Shown: piece after piece, positions 9,349 to 57,092 of the stretch
Position numbering within the stretch: position 1 is the stretch's first letter
Layout of the letters: each line of letters begins with the position of its first letter
NCBI RefSeq assembly: GCF_024502345.1
Contig: NZ_JALDNN010000001.1
DNA: 64,000 bases
Reading direction: 5' to 3' (one strand)
Origin: Escherichia coli
GTDB taxonomy: Bacteria; Pseudomonadota; Gammaproteobacteria; Enterobacterales; Enterobacteriaceae
Made by a program: the position numbers and the translations under genes
Notes under the pieces: model-generated
Seen by the model: the letters and a program-made list of their open reading frames with translations, nothing else
Database searches by the model: none
Told to the model about the DNA's origin: nothing

Positions 9349-9843
9349 TTATGAACAACTGTCCATGATTTCGTTTAAGAATGAAGAGAAATCACTAAAC
9401 GAACTGAATATATTTTCTGTGCCAATATTATCTCTAATTTCAAAAAAGTTACTTTTAATGTCATAAGTAAATATTGAAATGCTATCATCCCCGATCACTA
9501 ACCGTTCTTGTAGATCAGGGTTTATGAAATCATCATTATTTCTATAAAATTCATTTACGGCAAAAAGGTTTTTAACTGAAGGTTCTGGAATCGAGAGGCT
9601 AAATAATCGTAATCCATTAACTTCGAATCCATCCATTGCTCTTAAAAAAGTAAGATAATCAGGTTGATTCTTAAAAAGAATACTAACTTCATTACATAAC
9701 TTCTCCAGGCAATTAGTTGAATTAGAATTAAATTCTATTTGGATTATACTTTCAATAAATGATTCCTTGAGCGGAGCTTCAAATGGATAGTCTAAATCAT
9801 TCATCATTTTTATTAATTTATTTATTTGGGTTTTAGTCATCAT
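9349..9843 (-). CDS. yrhA: Putative immunity protein for the upstream Hcp-nuclease toxin (YrhA-like, apparently intact)
   Basis: 164-aa AT-rich ORF immediately downstream of the toxin gene, with ATGA start/stop overlap (9840-9843); position typical of a toxin-immunity pair. Function inferred from context only. Confidence 0.6.
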   Translation of the reverse strand: MMTKTQINKLIKMMNDLDYPFEAPLKESFIESIIQIEFNSNSTNCLEKLCNEVSILFKNQPDYLTFLRAMDGFEVNGLRLFSLSIPEPSVKNLFAVNEFYRNNDDFINPDLQERLVIGDDSISIFTYDIKSNFFEIRDNIGTENIFSSFSDFSSFLNEIMDSCS

Positions 9844-11018
9844 TTTGTGTGGTCCATAATATTTTTCATGGGAGGATAAATTGAGCCAGATGGAATGGCC
9901 CAGGGAGTGATTTTGCTTTCACCTACTAATATTCCCTTAGCTATTCGTGATTGCATGTTAGTAAAAACTTTATGATATGGTTCGTTTTCGATTAATACTA
10001 AATTTTCGAAATCATTAGTACCACCATCATCTAGAGATAGTTTATGGTGAACATTATAATTTAGAGGAGCATTGCCCTTTCTCATTCTTAAAAGGTCTTC
10101 GGCGTTGAATCTTCCAGATGCTTCGGAGGTTTTTGCAAGTTTGATAAGAAAATTTTTTCTTACAGTTTTATTAAACTCCTTTCGTAAGTTAGCTAAGTCT
10201 TTTGAAGGTCTCTTAATGTATATTATTTCTATTATGTCTATACCATCAAGAAGTTTTTGTTGACCTCTAAGTTTGCCTAAGTAACTATTTATTTCTGTAT
10301 ATGTATCAACATTAGAACGCTTTGTTAAAAGAATAGATGCTGTTGCTATCGCTATGCCCGCTGTTTTTTCATTTAGTATTTGATCATAGCCTTTTATTGC
10401 ATCTCCACCCAGTTTTTCCGCAGTATCTCTGAATCCTTCAATGTTCCCATTGTATACGCCACCAGCAGCAAGTAGCCTGCCAATAGCTTTGCTGTTTAAC
10501 GTTTTGAAACGATTATTTGTTTGGTTTTTTGAATTTGGTAAAAACAAACGGTTATAATTTTCAGGGAGTGCCAAATAGCTGAACTCGGTATTTGCGATAA
10601 GATGTTGACAGAGGATAAATTCATAACTAATAGTTATTGTTTCTGTATCCAGTTGGTTTTCAATGATCTGGTGATGAATAGCCGATAAAAAAGCGCCTCT
10701 TAGTTGTATATAATAATACTTTTCCAATCTACCAAATCTATTTATTCGATAGAAGTCAAATCCCATAAATAATTGTTCATTATTGTTAATGGAATTAATA
10801 AATAATGGAGTGCTTTTATCAATTAATTTACAAAATGTTATACCATGGAACTGTGAACCAAGCCCCGTATTATTAATATTATTTAAGAGTGAGAATGTAA
10901 ATATTTCATCCTCATGCCCGCTCTGCCAACGATTACCTGTAGACTCAGAAGTCCCACAACCTGCGGAGATGCTTCCTTGTTGTTCTCCCGTTACTGTCAG
11001 GTAAACAATATTACTCAT
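9840..11018 (-). CDS. yhhZ: Hcp-family protein with C-terminal HNH/colicin-DNase-like nuclease domain (Hcp-ET type polymorphic toxin, YhhZ)
   Basis: 392 aa. The N-terminal roughly 150 aa (MSNIVYLTVTGEQQGSISAGCGTSE...GHEDEI...) resemble Hcp/T6SS tube protein. The C-terminus carries NVHHKLSLDDGGTNDFENLVLIENEPYHK, matching the HH...GG...D..N...H pattern of colicin E9-type HNH DNases. Low G+C. Confidence 0.85.
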   Translation of the reverse strand: MSNIVYLTVTGEQQGSISAGCGTSESTGNRWQSGHEDEIFTFSLLNNINNTGLGSQFHGITFCKLIDKSTPLFINSINNNEQLFMGFDFYRINRFGRLEKYYYIQLRGAFLSAIHHQIIENQLDTETITISYEFILCQHLIANTEFSYLALPENYNRLFLPNSKNQTNNRFKTLNSKAIGRLLAAGGVYNGNIEGFRDTAEKLGGDAIKGYDQILNEKTAGIAIATASILLTKRSNVDTYTEINSYLGKLRGQQKLLDGIDIIEIIYIKRPSKDLANLRKEFNKTVRKNFLIKLAKTSEASGRFNAEDLLRMRKGNAPLNYNVHHKLSLDDGGTNDFENLVLIENEPYHKVFTNMQSRIAKGILVGESKITPWAIPSGSIYPPMKNIMDHTK

Positions 11019-11250: not shown

Positions 11251-11739
11251 TTACTTCACCCGCGCCATATAATATGCATCGACATATTCACCATTACGCA
11301 ATGCGTACTTCTTACCAGTCCCTTCAATTTCAAAGCCGTATTTTTTATAGACCTTAATTGCCGGGGCGTTATCGACAAACACGGTTAGTTCAATGCGATC
11401 TACCCGCAACCAGTTGTCGCACATTTCAATCATCTCTCGCATCAGGGCGCTGGCGACGCCGCGGTTCTTCCAACGAGAGTCGACACAGATACCAAAATCG
11501 GCAACATGACTGCGGCGTGGGCGCTGTTGCACGTCAATGGTGAGATGGCCCACGACGTCTCCATCAATACAGGCGACGAGTTGCTTGATGCCGGGACGAT
11601 CGGCGAGTCGCTCCTGCCACATATGATCGGAAGGATGAGGCACCTGTAGTGTGTTGCAATACACCTCCGGCTGGGCGTGAATCTGCCTGATGGCCTCGTA
11701 ATCCCGTGTTTCTGCGTGGCGTATTACTATCTCACTCAT
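11251..11739 (-). CDS. yhhY: GNAT-family N-acetyltransferase YhhY
   Basis: ORF track 11251..11817; start reassigned to ATG 11739 (MSEIVIRHAETRDYEAIRQIH...), 162 aa, with a GGA-rich RBS upstream. Confidence 0.9.
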   Translation of the reverse strand: MSEIVIRHAETRDYEAIRQIHAQPEVYCNTLQVPHPSDHMWQERLADRPGIKQLVACIDGDVVGHLTIDVQQRPRRSHVADFGICVDSRWKNRGVASALMREMIEMCDNWLRVDRIELTVFVDNAPAIKVYKKYGFEIEGTGKKYALRNGEYVDAYYMARVK

Positions 11740-11822
11740 TCCTTTGTCCTCTTTGGGGTAAATGTCCCTTTCAACATCATTGACTTTCAAATGCGAGTCA
11801 AATGCATTTTTTTGCAAAAAGT

Positions 11823-11860
11823 GTTGGACAAGTGCGAATGAGAATGATTATTATTGTCTC
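11823..11860 (+). promoter_or_regulatory. ryhB promoter with Fur box
   Basis: ttggacaagtgcgaatgagaatgattattattgtctc lies directly upstream of the RyhB +1; the gaatgagaatgattattatt segment resembles the Fur-box consensus gataatgataatcattatc. Confidence 0.6.
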
Positions 11861-11950
11861 GCGATCAGGAAGACCCTCGCGGAGAACCTGAAAGCACGAC
11901 ATTGCTCACATTGCTTCCAGTATTACTTAGCCAGCCGGGTGCTGGCTTTT
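11861..11950 (+). ncRNA. ryhB: RyhB small RNA (Fur-repressed, iron-sparing response)
   Basis: The 90 nt gcgatcaggaagaccctcgcggagaacctgaaagcacgacattgctcacattgcttccagtattacttagccagccgggtgctggctttt match RyhB as I recall it, ending in a Rho-independent terminator (gccagccgggtgctggc + T9). Lies between yhhY and yhhX as in K-12. Confidence 0.9.
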
Positions 11951-12071
11951 TTTTTGATCTTTCGTTCTCAATTTATCCACGGGAGTGCTTGTGTTCGTTA
12001 TGCGCACTCCAGTAGGAACCACGTCCGCTTTGCGCTAAGGTGTAAATAACCACCTTAAAAAGGACGAAATC

Positions 12072-13109
12072 ATGGTCATCAACTGCGCCTTTATTGGCTT
12101 CGGCAAAAGCACCACCCGTTACCATCTGCCGTATGTACTTAACCGCAAGGATAGCTGGCATGTCGCGCATATTTTTCGTCGCCATGCGAAGCCGGAAGAA
12201 CAGGCTCCCATTTATTCCCATATCCATTTCACCAGCGATCTCGACGAAGTACTAAACGATCCCGATGTTAAGCTGGTTGTTGTCTGCACCCACGCGGACA
12301 GCCATTTCGAGTACGCGAAACGCGCGCTGGAAGCCGGGAAAAATGTGCTGGTCGAAAAACCGTTCACTCCGACACTTGCGCAGGCGAAAGAGCTGTTTGC
12401 ACTGGCGAAAAGCAAAGGGCTGACCGTCACGCCATATCAGAATCGTCGCTTTGATTCCTGCTTCCTGACGGCGAAAAAAGCGATTGAAAGCGGCAAGCTG
12501 GGAGAGATTGTCGAAGTGGAAAGCCATTTTGACTATTACCGCCCGGTGGCAGAAACCAAACCTGGACTGCCGCAGGATGGCGCGTTCTATGGCCTTGGTG
12601 TGCATACGATGGACCAGATTATTTCTCTGTTCGGTCGCCCGGATCACGTCGCTTATGACATCCGCAGCCTGCGTAATACAGCCAATCCTGACGACACCTT
12701 TGAAGCGCAACTGTTTTATGGCGACCTGAAAGCCATCGTCAAAACCAGCCATCTGGTGAAAATCGATTATCCGAAATTTATCGTTCACGGTAAGAAAGGT
12801 TCGTTTATTAAATACGGTATCGACCAGCAGGAAACCAGCCTGAAGGCTAATATTATGCCGGGCGAACCGGGATTCGCAGCGGATGATTCGGTCGGTGTGC
12901 TGGAGTATGTCAATGACGAGGGCGTGACGGTCAGAGAAGAGATGAAGCCGGAGATGGGCGATTACGGGCGCGTTTATGATGCGTTGTATCAAACCATCAC
13001 CCACGGTGCGCCAAATTACGTCAAGGAATCTGAAGTTCTTACCAATCTGGAAATCTTTGAACGCGGATTTGAGCAAGCCTCTCCCTCCACAGTAACTCTC
13101 GCTAAGTAA
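12072..13109 (+). CDS. yhhX: Putative NAD(P)-dependent oxidoreductase (Gfo/Idh/MocA family) YhhX
   Basis: 345-aa ORF; N-terminal Rossmann motif (AFIGFGKSTTRYH); synteny. Confidence 0.9.
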   Translation: MVINCAFIGFGKSTTRYHLPYVLNRKDSWHVAHIFRRHAKPEEQAPIYSHIHFTSDLDEVLNDPDVKLVVVCTHADSHFEYAKRALEAGKNVLVEKPFTPTLAQAKELFALAKSKGLTVTPYQNRRFDSCFLTAKKAIESGKLGEIVEVESHFDYYRPVAETKPGLPQDGAFYGLGVHTMDQIISLFGRPDHVAYDIRSLRNTANPDDTFEAQLFYGDLKAIVKTSHLVKIDYPKFIVHGKKGSFIKYGIDQQETSLKANIMPGEPGFAADDSVGVLEYVNDEGVTVREEMKPEMGDYGRVYDALYQTITHGAPNYVKESEVLTNLEIFERGFEQASPSTVTLAK

Positions 13110-28858: not shown

Positions 28859-30376
28859 ATGGAAAGAATAATGCAAAACAGAAAATGGATTTTGTCCTCG
28901 CTGGTAATGACTTTTTTCGGCATCCCCATACTGACGCAATTTTTGGCGGCGGTTGTTGCTATGCTGGGTGTCGGACTTGCCGGTATTATTGAAGTTTGTA
29001 ATATCCTTATCACGCCAACAAGTTACCTTCTGCTCAACATTTTTATGCTGGCGCTGGGCGCATTAATGCTATTTTTCTCGGGGCGAGTATGGGCAGGCGA
29101 TAGTGCACCAGAAAAAAGAGAAATAGCCGTCTGGCGACAATGTCTTTTTTTAGTACCCGGTTTATTAATCCTGGTTGGCTGGATAATCGCGCTGCATCTG
29201 GCAGATTATCAATTTCACCAGATGGGATCGGGTTGGTTGGCTGATCTTATGCTCCCCTGGCTGGGCGTTTTGTTAGTCTCAGTAGTCGGAGGTGAGTACT
29301 GGTGGATAGTCATTATACCCGTTGGCGCGCATATCAGTTTTTCGCTGGGGTACGGCCGGCCAACCAGACATCCTTTAACCGGTACATCCGGGCTACGTTG
29401 CCGTAATTCCCTCCTGTTTATCCTTCTCATGCTTGGTTTTGTCGCTGGTTATCAGGGTTATTTATATAAACAGCTCAATCCCGGCGTCGGTGTGCGCGAA
29501 AATATTGATACCTGGGCCTGGCGACCCGATAAACTCAATAATCAACTGACACCACTGCGTGGTAAACCGCAAATTCAGTTTACGCAAAACTGGCCGCGAC
29601 TCGATGGTGCTACGGCGGCGTACCCAATTTATGCCTCTGCATTTTATGCTTTAAGCGTTATACCGGAAGATTTTCACACCAGGGAATATCTGGAGAGCTC
29701 TCGTACCCCCGATGCGTATAACAGGATTGTTAAAGGTGATGCTGATAGTATTTTTGTGGCGCAACCTTCCGGTGGGCAGAAAAAACGCGCTGAGGAATCG
29801 GGCGTTACTTTGCTGTACACGCCTTTTGCCCGTGAAGCGTTTGTTTTCATCGTCAATGCGGATAATCCGGTTAATTCCCTGACTGAACAACAGGTGCGTG
29901 ACATCTTCAGTGGTGCAATTACCAACTGGCGTACTGTTGGCGGTAACGATCAGGAGATCCAGACCTGGCAACGCCCGGAAGACTCTGGTAGCCAGACGGT
30001 GATGCAATCCCAGGTCATGAAAAATGTCCGCATGATCTCGCCGCAGGAAACAGAAGTGGCAAGTATGATGGAGGGAATGATTAAAGTCGTTGCCGAATAC
30101 CGTAATACAAACAACTCAATAGGTTACACCTTCCGTTATTACGCAACACAAATGAACGCCGATAAAAATATAAAACTGCTAGCGATTAACGGTATTGCAC
30201 CGACTGCCGAAAACATTCGCAACGGCAAATATCCCTATATCGTCGATGCCTTTATGGTAACGCGGGAAAATACGATGTCAGAGACACAAAAATTGTTGGA
30301 GTGGTTTTTAACGCCGCAGGGACAGAGTTTGGTGGAAGATGTAGGTTATGTCCCGATGTATAAGACGCTACCTTAA
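28859..30376 (+). CDS. Membrane-anchored protein: N-terminal polytopic domain fused to a C-terminal PstS-fold periplasmic-binding-protein-like domain; function unknown
   Basis: 505 aa. Residues 1 to about 190 contain several hydrophobic helices. The C-terminal half carries PstS-family motifs (LTEQQVRDIFSGAITNWRTVGG; RPEDSGSQ; IGYTFRYY; LLAINGIAPTAENIRNGKYPY; VGYVPMY). Alternative start ATG 28871. As I recall, K-12 keeps only a short pseudogene remnant (yzgL) at this position. Confidence 0.8.
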   Translation: MERIMQNRKWILSSLVMTFFGIPILTQFLAAVVAMLGVGLAGIIEVCNILITPTSYLLLNIFMLALGALMLFFSGRVWAGDSAPEKREIAVWRQCLFLVPGLLILVGWIIALHLADYQFHQMGSGWLADLMLPWLGVLLVSVVGGEYWWIVIIPVGAHISFSLGYGRPTRHPLTGTSGLRCRNSLLFILLMLGFVAGYQGYLYKQLNPGVGVRENIDTWAWRPDKLNNQLTPLRGKPQIQFTQNWPRLDGATAAYPIYASAFYALSVIPEDFHTREYLESSRTPDAYNRIVKGDADSIFVAQPSGGQKKRAEESGVTLLYTPFAREAFVFIVNADNPVNSLTEQQVRDIFSGAITNWRTVGGNDQEIQTWQRPEDSGSQTVMQSQVMKNVRMISPQETEVASMMEGMIKVVAEYRNTNNSIGYTFRYYATQMNADKNIKLLAINGIAPTAENIRNGKYPYIVDAFMVTRENTMSETQKLLEWFLTPQGQSLVEDVGYVPMYKTLP

Positions 30377-30460
30377 AGCTGGATAATAAAAATGGAATTA
30401 GTTAATACATTATTTGCAAGCCTTGCCGGTACTGATCCCTTCACAGGCGTGGATATTACG

Positions 30461-30469
30461 ATTGCCAAC
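30461..30469. repeat. 9-bp target-site duplication (left copy) attgccaac
   Basis: Identical to 31527..31535, directly flanking the IS termini. Confidence 0.85.
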
Positions 30470-30487
30470 GGCTTTGTTGAATAAATC
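30470..30487. repeat. IS903 terminal inverted repeat (18 bp)
   Basis: ggctttgttgaataaatc; exact reverse complement is found at 31509..31526. Confidence 0.9.
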
Positions 30488-30525
30488 AGATTTCGGGTAA
30501 GTCTCCCCCGTAGCGGGTTGTGTTT

Positions 30526-31449
30526 TCAGGCAATACGCACGCTTTCAGGCATACCTGCTTTCGTCATTTTGTTCAGCGCTCGTACCAGGGCCATAGCCTC
30601 TGCAACCTGACCATCGTAGTCACGCAGTGTCAGTGAACCCCCGAACAGCTGTTTTACCCGGTACATCGCCGTTTCCGCTATCGAGCGACGGTTGTAATCT
30701 GTTGTCCATTTCCACCGCGCATTACTCCCGGTCATTCGCTGATTAGCCACTGCACGGTTACGGTCTGCATATTCACCGGGCCAGTAACCCGCACCTTTTC
30801 GGGGAGGGATAAGCGCGCTGATTTTCTTACGCCGCAGTTCATCGTGACATAGCCGGGTATCGTAAGCGCCATCGGCGGCGGCTGACCTGATTTTCCGGTG
30901 GGTTTGCCGGATTAACCCGGGGAAGGCCTCTGAGTCCGTAACGTTGTTCAGCGACAGGTCAGCGCAGATGATTTCATGTGTTTTACTGTCAACGGCGAGA
31001 TGCAGCTTACGCCAGATACGGCGGCGTTCCTGGCCATGCTTTTTGACTTTCCACTCGCCTTCACCGAAGACCTTCAGCCCGGTGGAATCAATTACCAGGT
31101 GTGCGATTTCACCCCGGGTGGGCGTTTTGAAACTGACATTAACCGACTTTGCCCGCCTGCTGACACAGCTGTAATCCGGGCAGCGTAGCGGAACGTTCAT
31201 CAGAGAAAAAATGGAATCAATAAAGCCCTGCGCAGCGCGCAGGGTCAGCCTGAATACGCGTTTAATGACCAGCACAGTCGTGATGGCAAGGTCAGAATAG
31301 CGCTGAGGTCTGCCTCGTGAAGAAGGTGTTGCTGACTCATACCAGGCCTGAATAGCTTCATCATCCAGCCAGAAAGTTATGGAGCCACGGTTGATGAGGG
31401 CTTTATTGTAGGTGGGCCAGTTGGTGATTTTGAACTTTTGCTTTGCCAC
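30526..31449 (-). CDS. IS903 transposase (DDE, IS5 family)
   Basis: ORF track 30526..31494 (TTG); probable GTG start at 31449 giving 307 aa beginning MAKQKFKITNWPTYNKALINRGS..., which matches my recollection of the IS903 transposase; also ...LVIDSTGLKVFGEGEWKVKKHG.... Confidence 0.9.
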   Translation of the reverse strand: MAKQKFKITNWPTYNKALINRGSITFWLDDEAIQAWYESATPSSRGRPQRYSDLAITTVLVIKRVFRLTLRAAQGFIDSIFSLMNVPLRCPDYSCVSRRAKSVNVSFKTPTRGEIAHLVIDSTGLKVFGEGEWKVKKHGQERRRIWRKLHLAVDSKTHEIICADLSLNNVTDSEAFPGLIRQTHRKIRSAAADGAYDTRLCHDELRRKKISALIPPRKGAGYWPGEYADRNRAVANQRMTGSNARWKWTTDYNRRSIAETAMYRVKQLFGGSLTLRDYDGQVAEAMALVRALNKMTKAGMPESVRIA

Positions 31450-31508
31450 GGAACGGTCTGCGTTGTCGGGAAGATACGTGATCTGATCCTTCAACTCAGC
31501 AAAAGTTC

Positions 31509-31526
31509 GATTTATTCAACAAAGCC
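31509..31526. repeat. IS903 terminal inverted repeat (18 bp, other end)
   Basis: gatttattcaacaaagcc = reverse complement of 30470..30487. Confidence 0.9.
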
Positions 31527-31535
31527 ATTGCCAAC
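31527..31535. repeat. 9-bp target-site duplication (right copy) attgccaac
   Basis: Identical to 30461..30469. Confidence 0.85.
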
Positions 31536-32170
31536 TGCAAATCGGCATACTGGGATGAAGGCATTGTTCAGCAACTTATTAACCAGGCCCTGGATGAAGG
31601 GGAAAAGTTCGTCGGTGCTGACGGTCTTGAGGGATTGCTTCGATATGATGTCACATTAAATATTGGCTTAACCTCCAGCAAGGTATGGCCGGGATTTTCC
31701 CTCGATACCGCCACCATTAGCCGTCTTTGTGCCTGTGGTGCTGATTTTGGATTTGACCCCTATATCAGTGATGTACCAGATGTTCAATGTGACCTGAACA
31801 CGACAAATGACGTCACCGTACAATTTACGGCGATGCTAAATCCGGATGAGCGGGTGATAATAGCAAAGCGCCCGCTTAAAAAATGTGACTCCTGGATTGA
31901 GGATGTCTATATCTTTCAGGTCTTAAAAGATGCCTGGAAATTTCATAACAATAACAGTTTACGCGGATTTCGCGATAAGCAGGCCGAACTGAAACTCTAC
32001 ACGCGTCATTACTCAGTGGAAAATTGCGCAGAGGAAAGCTGTCGAGACTGCAATAGTTGCATTCGCCCCAGCTTTTCCCTTTCGCGTAGCGCCCTTATTC
32101 GCCTGAACGCGGCGAATGCTCGTTTTGTCTATCAACCGTTTACACGCGATCAGCGGGCGAGGGGGTAACT

Positions 32171-32938
32171 ATGCAACCCAGCCCTGCCATGCAGGCATTA
32201 ATTGAGCAGATTTATCACACCTTTCGTCGTTATCGGGTGCCGCAGAAATTTGTGGTTTGTTGTGAATATTGCCTGAGTCAGCAGGAACAAAAGGCATTAC
32301 GGAGTACATCGTTACGAGCGATCCCGTATTCCTTAATCAATGCCTGGAATAGTAGCCCAGGGCCTGATCCGCAAAATAGCGATGAGGTCCGCTATTTTCT
32401 GCCGCGTTTACTGGAATTTGTTGCACAGGGGCATTTTGACAATATTCACGTAGTTTTTTCTCTGCGCCGTATCAACCTTGCCAACAAAGAAAACTGGCGT
32501 GCGGATGAACGGGCAATTTTACAGCGATTTGCCTGCCAGTATATGACTGATTGGGTATCCGGCGATGAAGCTGTCGAATTACAGTATATGCTGGAAATGT
32601 TTTTCCGTGCCGATATCGCTCTTGCGCCATTGCTGGATGCCATTAATTCAGTTCCCGGCTTTTGGTCGACCGTTTCTCTTGCCTGTTTATTGAACAGATA
32701 TTGTGAGGATTATATCAGAGATAACCAGGACGATATCGATAACGCCATTACCACCCAAATCAATGCCTGGGCTAGAAATAATCATCCTTTACTGAAAGAA
32801 AGAGCGCGGCAAGCGATTGAGAACCCGCTAAAACAGCCCGAACCAATGACAGAATATCATGTCTGGGAAGATGACTGGATAATTGATGAGTGTTTATGCG
32901 CGATGTATGACGCATCATCCGAATCACCAGGAAAATAA
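32171..32938 (+). CDS. Third islet gene, hypothetical protein (255 aa), no recognisable motif
   Basis: ORF starts 2 nt after the stop of the preceding gene; soluble-looking; no family recognised by eye. Confidence 0.7.
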   Translation: MQPSPAMQALIEQIYHTFRRYRVPQKFVVCCEYCLSQQEQKALRSTSLRAIPYSLINAWNSSPGPDPQNSDEVRYFLPRLLEFVAQGHFDNIHVVFSLRRINLANKENWRADERAILQRFACQYMTDWVSGDEAVELQYMLEMFFRADIALAPLLDAINSVPGFWSTVSLACLLNRYCEDYIRDNQDDIDNAITTQINAWARNNHPLLKERARQAIENPLKQPEPMTEYHVWEDDWIIDECLCAMYDASSESPGK

Positions 32939-32940
32939 AA

Positions 32941-33546
32941 ATGATTAAATTCCGGCTTTATATTCCCCCTGTAATTCTCGGTTTTGTTATCGTGCCATTA
33001 TTGGTATGGCCGACGGTTATTGTCTTAGCCGTACTTATATTCACGTTAACTTTTCTGGCAGAAATAATATTCTCCTTTCCGCTCCTGGTTGTACGTATTT
33101 CTCTTCAGGAATTACAACTTGAGTTAATGGTTGAATATGCACTTTTTTTCAGTGTAATGGCTGGCATCGGTTGGCAATTCTCCCGCAGAACGCCTCCTGA
33201 ATTAAAAAACAGACTGCATTGCTGGCTGGTCTTTTCGCCGGTCTATTTCTGGTTAATTCTCTCGAATTTCATTCTTTATATTTCTCCAGAGAAATCAGCG
33301 TTGCTGGAAAATATCCGAAATTTCTTTCTGACGTTTGTCTGGCCTCCCCTGAATTTTTCCCCTTTTTGGCCGCAGCCTTGGACTGATTTTGTCGGCCCGA
33401 TTAGTGCACAGCTTGGTTTTGCATTGGGATATTATTGCCATTGGTGCAGAAAAAATAGAAACCAGAGGAAGAAGTGGGGCGATTGGGTAACGTGCTTAAG
33501 TTTGGCGATTTTAGCTCAGGGGCCGTTATTCAATTATTTACAATGA
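32941..33546 (+). CDS. Fourth islet gene, small multi-pass membrane protein (201 aa), function unknown
   Basis: ORF starts 2 nt after the stop of the third gene; several hydrophobic segments (VILGFVIVPLLVWPTVIVLAVLIFTLTFLAEIIF; WLVFSPVYFWLILSNFILYI); lowest G+C of the islet by eye. Confidence 0.7.
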   Translation: MIKFRLYIPPVILGFVIVPLLVWPTVIVLAVLIFTLTFLAEIIFSFPLLVVRISLQELQLELMVEYALFFSVMAGIGWQFSRRTPPELKNRLHCWLVFSPVYFWLILSNFILYISPEKSALLENIRNFFLTFVWPPLNFSPFWPQPWTDFVGPISAQLGFALGYYCHWCRKNRNQRKKWGDWVTCLSLAILAQGPLFNYLQ

Positions 33547-33567
33547 ATAGTCTAAGGAATCCAAATA

Positions 33568-33590
33568 GCCCGGTTGCACTTCAACCGGGC
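33568..33590. terminator. Perfect hairpin between the convergent islet operon and glpD
   Basis: Stem gcccggttg / caaccgggc (9 bp) with 5-nt loop; lies between the stop of the fourth islet gene (33546) and the glpD stop (33598); no strong U-tract. Confidence 0.45.
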
Positions 33591-33597
33591 ATCATCC

Positions 33598-49144: not shown

Positions 49145-49165
49145 GCCGGATGCGATGCATCCGGC
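49145..49165. repeat. REP-like palindrome / bidirectional terminator between convergent malQ and gntT
   Basis: gccggatgc gat gcatccggc: perfect 9-bp stem with 3-nt loop. Confidence 0.5.
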
Positions 49166-56888: not shown

Positions 56889-56998
56889 AGGTGCCTACTT
56901 GTTTCTCATTAACTGGATAACTACCTCATGGGGCGTTTGACAGCGACATGAGACCAGATGATTTGCCAACGAAGGAGAGATTAAATAATCAACAGTAC

Positions 56999-57092
56999 AA
57001 TGATAATGAGAATGGTTTCTATCAGCAATACTTAAAATGTGTGCGAATGTTGGTTTGAATAATAATCTGACTCAATGTTGATGTGGCTCAAG
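56999..57092 (-). promoter_or_regulatory. feoABC promoter region: candidate Fur box and FNR site
   Basis: aatgataatgagaatggtttctatc (56999-57023) is Fur-box-like; ttgatgtggctcaa (57078-57091) matches TTGAT-N4-ATCAA at 9 of 10 positions. Confidence 0.4.

Follow-up and report, generated by a model that had tools for sequence, protein, structure and literature searches.

The yhhY–yhhX spacer in the 64,000-nucleotide stretch of Escherichia coli DNA analysed here (below, the window) raises the question of whether it houses the gene of the small RNA RyhB with its own Fur-controlled promoter and terminator, as a preliminary description of this DNA had proposed, or whether the same signals serve another product: the mRNA of the downstream gene yhhX, a short protein or a secondary copy of ryhB.

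Identity and position of the RNA gene

Searching the whole window against Rfam 15 registered the family RF00057 (RyhB) at positions 11890–11954 of the plus strand with a score of 83.1 bits (E = 3.6e-14), well above the gathering score of 55, and the match covered model positions 1–67 of 67 without truncation. Besides RyhB, neither other Rfam families at the gathering level nor tRNAs were found in the 64-kb window. The segment 11861–11955 (+) is identical over 95/95 nt to ryhB as curated in E. coli K-12 MG1655 (b4451, “small regulatory RNA RyhB”, NC_000913.3, 3580922–3581016, minus strand), which likewise lies between yhhX and yhhY, and the coincidence with K-12 extends over the entire yhhY–yhhX spacer (11740–12071, 332/332 nt, 100%). 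The 90-nt RNA GCGATCAGG...GCTGGCTTTT at 11861–11950 (+), named RyhB in the preliminary description, is thus confirmed both by the Infernal score and by zero mismatches in the alignment with the curated gene.

The transcribed sequence, GCGATCAGGAAGACCC...GCCAGCCGGGTGCTGGC, begins at 11861 and is followed by a run of T ending at 11955. Positions 11861–11950 correspond to the classical 90-nt form of RyhB; its real 3′ ends fall within the U-tract, which gives an RNA of about 90–95 nt. The interval initially assigned to the feature, 11823–11950, starts approximately 2 nt before the −35 hexamer and therefore comprises the promoter together with the RNA, not the RNA alone. Its right border leaves only four T of the T9 tract inside and has to be shifted to 11955, the end of the K-12 gene.

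Both neighbours were assigned by full-length matches to NCBIfam equivalogs. The divergent upstream neighbour is yhhY, coding for a GNAT N-acetyltransferase (11251–11739, minus strand; NF007527, 373 bits), and the co-oriented downstream one is yhhX, coding for a putative oxidoreductase (12072–13109, plus strand; NF007574, 776 bits), which starts 116 nt after the T-tract of ryhB. The position of RyhB is therefore canonical, i.e. between yhhY and yhhX and in the orientation of yhhX, with the gene order of K-12.

Among 5426 complete E. coli genomes the ryhB spacer was found in 5424, always on the chromosome and with a median of one RyhB copy per genome, and in 5413 of these 5424 the promoter together with the RNA was at least 99% identical to the sequence studied here. 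The locus is absent from two of the 5426 genomes, and the copy in NZ_CP195448.1 is 93.7% identical and spans 142 bp against the 133-bp query. Among the matches listed, the RefSeq E. coli records annotated by PGAP carry no feature over ryhB, and the curated K-12 record alone names it. The gap lies in the annotation and does not speak for absence of the gene. Since nothing is annotated there by PGAP in the records listed, views of such genomes based on open reading frames or on PGAP would miss a physiologically important regulator.

Many Enterobacterales have two RyhB cores per genome (L003/L004, L006/L007 and L011/L012, for instance), and a second-copy paralogue or a decayed copy instead of the functional canonical gene might accordingly be suspected here. 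The median of one chromosomal copy per E. coli genome, the canonical position between yhhY and yhhX, the identity to the characterised K-12 gene and the intactness of all functional elements make such an origin exceedingly improbable, and it was rejected on the grounds of K-12 identity and position.

Promoter and Fur operator

Consensus scanning revealed a −35 hexamer TGGACA (11825–11830, +) and a −10 hexamer TATTAT (11849–11854, +), with its last base 7 nt ahead of the annotated +1 (11861). With an 18-nt spacer and 10 of 12 hexamer positions matching the consensus, this promoter is correctly spaced from the start point, and at the strict threshold used it is the sole σ70-like site on both strands of the region 11600–12200.

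The best Fur box, GAGAATGATTATTATTGTC at 11840–11858, agrees with the consensus GATAATGATAATCATTATC in 16 of 19 positions (3 mismatches). No other match with three or fewer mismatches occurs in the 64 kb, while dinucleotide-preserving shuffles give an expectation of 0.01. A second register, shifted by 6 nt and beginning at 11834, matches in 14 positions out of 19, as expected from the organisation of Fur operators as hexamer arrays. Taken together the overlapping registers (GCGAAT GAGAAT GATTAT TATTGT C) form an operator at 11834–11858. This operator overlies the −10 hexamer and stops 3 nt short of +1, so that Fur bound there would occlude RNA polymerase.

Recurrence of this arrangement was estimated in homologous loci, all retrieved from one-per-species genomes with the 22-nt conserved core of RyhB (see below) as an exact search pattern. 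A Fur box of at least 14/19 was present within 80 nt upstream of the core at 88% of 117 homologous sites, a level of match reached by just 0.5% of random windows from these loci and by 0.5% of upstream regions after shuffling. For the K-12 sequence Chen et al. (PMC2189734) described four Fur sites that overlap in a cluster centred at −15 of ryhB (25.2 bits for the strongest), and observed in a gel shift the binding of Fur to an oligonucleotide with the ryhB site. The Fur-box promoter named in the preliminary description therefore stands: its operator overlaps the −10 and start region, is unique in the window, recurs across genera and binds Fur in vitro. The main text of the Fur ChIP-seq paper PMC4676285 contains no passage on the ryhB promoter.

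Two weaker, overlapping Fur-box-like matches (13/19 each, 6 nt apart) were registered at 56996–57020, approximately 130 nt upstream of feoA, the position of which was deduced from the K-12 alignment. Judging by sequence, the window would contain another Fur-controlled promoter besides that of ryhB.

Conserved core and its complementarity to sodB

The target-pairing core of RyhB belongs to a central hairpin (11896–11921, +) seen in the Rfam consensus structure. The 22-nt segment ACATTGCTCACATTGCTTCCAG at 11899–11920 was found in at least 120 genome stretches, often twice per genome, in Enterobacterales, Vibrionaceae and Aeromonas. The enterobacterial carriers include Escherichia albertii, Citrobacter, Enterobacter, Klebsiella, Yersinia, Serratia, Pantoea, Erwinia, Photorhabdus, Xenorhabdus, Providencia and Morganella. 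In Enterobacterales and Aeromonas a hairpin with a T-run follows 20–36 nt after the core.

Nucleotides 38–46 of RyhB (GACAUUGCU, 11898–11906) are perfectly complementary to positions −4 to +5 of sodB (AGCAAUGUC), the AUG included. Dinucleotide shuffling of RyhB produced a complement of 9 nt to the 35-nt initiation region of sodB in only 9 cases out of 2000, and the duplex between the core and this region has a predicted energy of −18.0 kcal/mol (z = −3.1). In the calculated fold no part is more accessible than nucleotides 37–51, whose unpaired probability averages 0.70. The seed bases G44 and C45, identified by mutations in PMC6191717, correspond here to positions 11904–11905. A duplex of full-length RyhB with the sodB leader gave an implausible end-to-end pairing of −34.3 kcal/mol, which was matched by 5.4% of shuffles. 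It was discarded because intramolecular structure is ignored in such a calculation, and the test was limited to the core and the translation-initiation region instead.

The same core unites the RyhB-like RNAs of other bacteria. Many Enterobacterales have two unlinked copies, each with its own Fur box; examples of such pairs are RfrA/RfrB (that is, RyhB-1/RyhB-2/IsrE) of Salmonella and RyhB1/RyhB2 of Yersinia. In common with the E. coli gene they all have the 22-nt core, a Fur box ahead of it and a terminator with a U-tail, while the second copies differ in their 5′ parts, have a terminator stem of the GCCCGC/GCGGGC type and lie elsewhere in the genome; a second-type Fur box has the form GATAAAGATTATCTTTCTC. 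In contrast to these pairs, E. coli typically has one copy. Two cores in tandem, 306 nt apart, were observed in Salinivibrio sharmensis (L038, 11701–11722 and 12007–12028). Vibrio RyhB also combines the conserved core with an upstream Fur box, but no terminator is present there within about 45 nt of the core, and its Fur box is placed further upstream, so this longer form is extended on both sides. According to PMC8764119, Fur binds upstream of ryhB in V. vulnificus.

Terminator and secondary structure

The 3′ part of the gene contains a Rho-independent terminator hairpin AGCCAGC-CGGGU-GCUGGCU (11929–11947, +) with seven pairs, five of them GC; in DNA terms the loop CGGGT separates AGCCAGC from GCTGGCT. 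It is followed by exactly nine T (11947–11955, +), read directly from the sequence, the first of which doubles as the last base of the stem. This tract corresponds to the 3′ poly-U tail of the RNA, the site for the proximal face of Hfq. In an alignment of 94 sequences the stem was paired in 97.7% of cases, with compensatory double changes at 4 of 7 pairs; at one position, for instance, A-U is replaced by C-G or G-C in 22 sequences. For the whole structure tested, pairing reached 98.4% as compared with 28–45% when the 3′ partners were slid by 1–3 columns. Morita et al. (PMC4509938) reported a free energy of −10.7 kcal/mol for the ryhB terminator hairpin and a poly-U length of 9, and found that Hfq binding is lost when the poly-U of RyhB is not 3′-terminal. 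The GC hairpin with T9 noted in the preliminary description is thus present, its stem covaries in homologues, and a hairpin with a tail of nine U is what the published data contain.

Between the core and the terminator lies an A/U-rich linker UAUUACUU (11921–11928, +), which is unpaired in the minimum free energy structure, in the centroid and in the Rfam consensus. Based on the concept cited in PMC4509938, it may represent the internal part of the Hfq-binding module.

For the 5′ part explicit counts of pairs were used, with two candidate stems compared, and they replaced RNAalifold, which in 25 close enterobacterial homologues gave neither covariation nor a 5′ stem owing to the excessive similarity of these sequences, in which core and terminator are invariant. 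The stem-loop formed by UCAGG (nt 5–9) and CCUGA (nt 27–31), occupying 11865–11891 (+), was paired in 88.6% of cases in the 25 homologues, with double changes at 3 of 5 pairs. The alternative stem GCGA/UCGC, suggested by the minimum free energy structure of the single sequence, was paired in only 50% and was dismissed. We therefore prefer UCAGG/CCUGA with moderate confidence; it is the least certain element of the structure. The central hairpin could not covary in this set of homologues because its sequence was fixed by the search pattern. The single-sequence fold of RyhB showed no extra stability over shuffles (z = −0.67), as is usual for Hfq-dependent small RNAs with open seed regions.

Protein-coding potential of the region

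Two open reading frames from the program-made list cross this region: one of 95 aa (11762–12049, +), which runs through RyhB, and another of 53 aa (11854–12015). Over about 98 nt the frame through the core is stop-free in 23 of 25 homologues, as might be expected of a coding segment, but there is nothing unusual in ~32 codons staying open when a GC hairpin and a T-run are among them. The ATG of the longer frame lies 99 nt upstream of the mapped +1, i.e. upstream of the promoter as well, and the 90-nt transcript contains neither an AUG nor an in-frame stop. Among homologues the distance from the core to the terminator varies by 1–4 nt (26–30 nt), and their 5′ parts carry many indels of lengths other than multiples of three; therefore no frame is conserved. 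A 22-nt block invariant across orders and then a covarying stem are a signature of RNA. That the region codes for a protein is consequently next to impossible, and the 95-aa frame was rejected.

Neighbouring genes and the possible role of yhhX

Of the two flanking genes yhhY is the more faithful neighbour. In divergent orientation it is linked to the RyhB core in 30 cross-species loci, some from genera as distant as Yersinia, Serratia, Pantoea and Erwinia, with its start at an almost constant distance of 157–207 nt from the core, while yhhX directly follows RyhB in 12 cross-species loci. The promoter of yhhY must share the ~120-bp spacer with that of ryhB, and judging from this arrangement coupling of yhhY to Fur and iron is conceivable. 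The yhhY-proximal segment 11780–11820 contains inverted repeats TTGACT/AGTCAA (with a 10-nt gap), AAATGC/GCATTT and TTTTTG/CAAAAA, which may belong to an operator or promoter element of yhhY or may have arisen by chance in AT-rich DNA.

The role of yhhX deserves a separate consideration, because Vassinova and Kozyrev, as referred to in PMC2189734, first assigned this in-vivo-selected Fur site to yhhX. One may suppose that the Fur-regulated promoter mainly serves this gene and that “RyhB” is just a 5′ leader or attenuator of a ryhB–yhhX mRNA. The disposition of the genes is compatible with that: yhhX lies on the same strand 116 nt past the T-tract, strict consensus scanning gave no other σ70-like promoter for it between 11600 and 12200, and it directly follows the RNA gene in 12 homologous loci. 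Moreover, about 20% readthrough of the ryhB terminator was registered under normal growth (PMC4509938), and the authors of that work wrote that ryhB “seems to be co-transcribed” with yhhX. Against it stands the strong and covarying terminator within the RNA itself, which stops transcription better in iron-depleted cells, the very condition in which the promoter is active (PMC4509938). Furthermore, the core, the Fur box and the terminator are kept in many genomes where yhhX is missing downstream despite several kilobases available (L014, L017, L033, L068, L072, L085, L094, L117 and L118 among them), RyhB is kept also in Vibrio and Aeromonas, and its trans action on sodB and sdhCDAB was demonstrated genetically (PMC6191717). 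That RyhB is mainly a leader of yhhX is therefore highly improbable. Its persistence without yhhX and its function in trans mean that co-transcription could add to the role of the small RNA, but cannot replace it.

With RyhB retained as a small RNA in its own right, its promoter and terminator could at the same time operate as an attenuator of yhhX, tuned by iron and stress through readthrough. We consider this additional function possible, yet rather doubtful. The readthrough transcript has already been suggested in print, where it is called likely but unproven. A comparable situation is known for sgrS–setA, where an Hfq-dependent small RNA with a leaky Rho-independent terminator also precedes a co-oriented gene; co-transcription was demonstrated for that pair, whereas for ryhB–yhhX it was only suggested (PMC4509938). 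The spacer between RyhB and yhhX contains two inverted repeats able to form hairpins (11979–12013 and 12036–12057). One of them has 10-nt arms with 90% complementarity, while the other has perfect 7-nt arms and ends approximately 14 nt before the ATG of yhhX. Both hairpins would belong to any readthrough or yhhX leader transcript.

Other features of the window

The window is collinear with positions 3533032–3593659 of K-12 in reverse orientation at 98–99% identity, and its source strain is not K-12. Several differences from K-12 were registered outside the ryhB locus. In K-12 yrhA is split by an IS1E element, which is lacking here (window 9349–11018, junction at 9454–9462). Two K-12-matching blocks overlap at the junction by 9 nt (9454–9462), and this overlap is taken to correspond to the target-site duplication generated by IS1 in K-12. 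The intact yrhA frame (164 aa, 9349–9843, minus strand) has no Pfam match and overlaps the end of yhhZ (9840–11018), which has an N-terminal Hcp/TssD domain of the type VI secretion system and is annotated in K-12 as a putative endonuclease. By domain content and arrangement the two genes look like an orphan Hcp-toxin with its immunity gene.

Between glgP and glpD about 4.5 kb (29089–33597) stand in place of approximately 270 bp of K-12 containing the yzgL remnant. This island encodes a PstS-like/PBP_like_2 protein of 505 aa, an IS5-family transposase (30526–31494, minus strand) and three products of 177, 255 and 201 aa with neither Pfam nor NCBIfam matches. Without the IS the island occurs in other E. 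coli, and the IS at this site was found in 0 of 5426 complete genomes. Finally, near position 49157 about 65 bp of the K-12 gntT–malQ spacer (3547896–3547959) are missing from the window, which may reflect polymorphism of a REP-type element.

Discussion

Family score, identity to K-12, genomic position, Fur operator, terminator and the core complementary to sodB all agree with RyhB, and the locus is almost certainly the canonical ryhB gene of Escherichia coli with its Fur-repressed promoter and terminator. As compared with K-12 RyhB (SraI, RF00057), the RNA, the promoter, the Fur operator, the terminator and the flanking genes are all the same, and nothing differs within the locus. It is an already known gene, RyhB itself, neither a relative nor a variant, so that the label of a well-known feature attached to it at the outset was appropriate for what is an ordinary E. 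coli ryhB.

Its mode of action can be outlined as follows. In cells with sufficient iron Fur would occupy the overlapping boxes at 11834–11858, leaving the promoter occluded and no RNA made, and in iron-deprived cells Fur would leave the DNA, allowing RNA polymerase to start at 11861. Termination in the U-tract after the hairpin 11929–11947 should then yield an RNA of about 90–95 nt, which Hfq is expected to stabilise by binding its 3′ poly-U tail and the A/U-rich linker next to it. Hfq would then assist base pairing between the exposed core (nt ~37–51) and the translation-initiation regions of messages such as sodB and sdhCDAB, which code for iron-using proteins that the cell can dispense with. 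This pairing would block translation and lead to RNase E-dependent co-degradation, so that iron is spared. In the work of Sinha et al. (PMC6191717) RyhB escaped detection in fur+ cells and was made constitutively once fur had been deleted; it was protected by Hfq and repressed sodB and sdhCDAB. In this outline the identity, the family, the anatomy of promoter, Fur box and terminator, the conservation, the covariation and the sodB complementarity were computed here, and Fur binding, the dependence on iron, Fur and Hfq, the seed mutants and the terminator efficiency are taken from published work on K-12, whose sequence is identical here. Since the 332-bp intergenic region is the same, it seems reasonable to expect that the source strain would behave as K-12.

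The same logic of regulation is known beyond this family. PrrF1 and PrrF2 of Pseudomonas are Fur-repressed small RNAs, which lower the level of iron-using proteins and thereby spare iron. IsrR of Staphylococcus aureus is described in PMC11317140 as one more Fur-repressed iron-sparing small RNA. Both PrrF1/PrrF2 and IsrR are functional analogues of RyhB, but they are not known to be related to it in sequence or to belong to RF00057.

From the sequence alone the preliminary description correctly recognised a non-coding gene together with its regulatory elements. Co-transcription of yhhX by readthrough, if it takes place, would make yhhX a Fur-controlled gene and give RyhB a role in cis beside its role in trans. 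Among Fur-controlled, Hfq-dependent, iron-sparing small RNAs RyhB is the paradigm, and its presence in this window adds no new biology.
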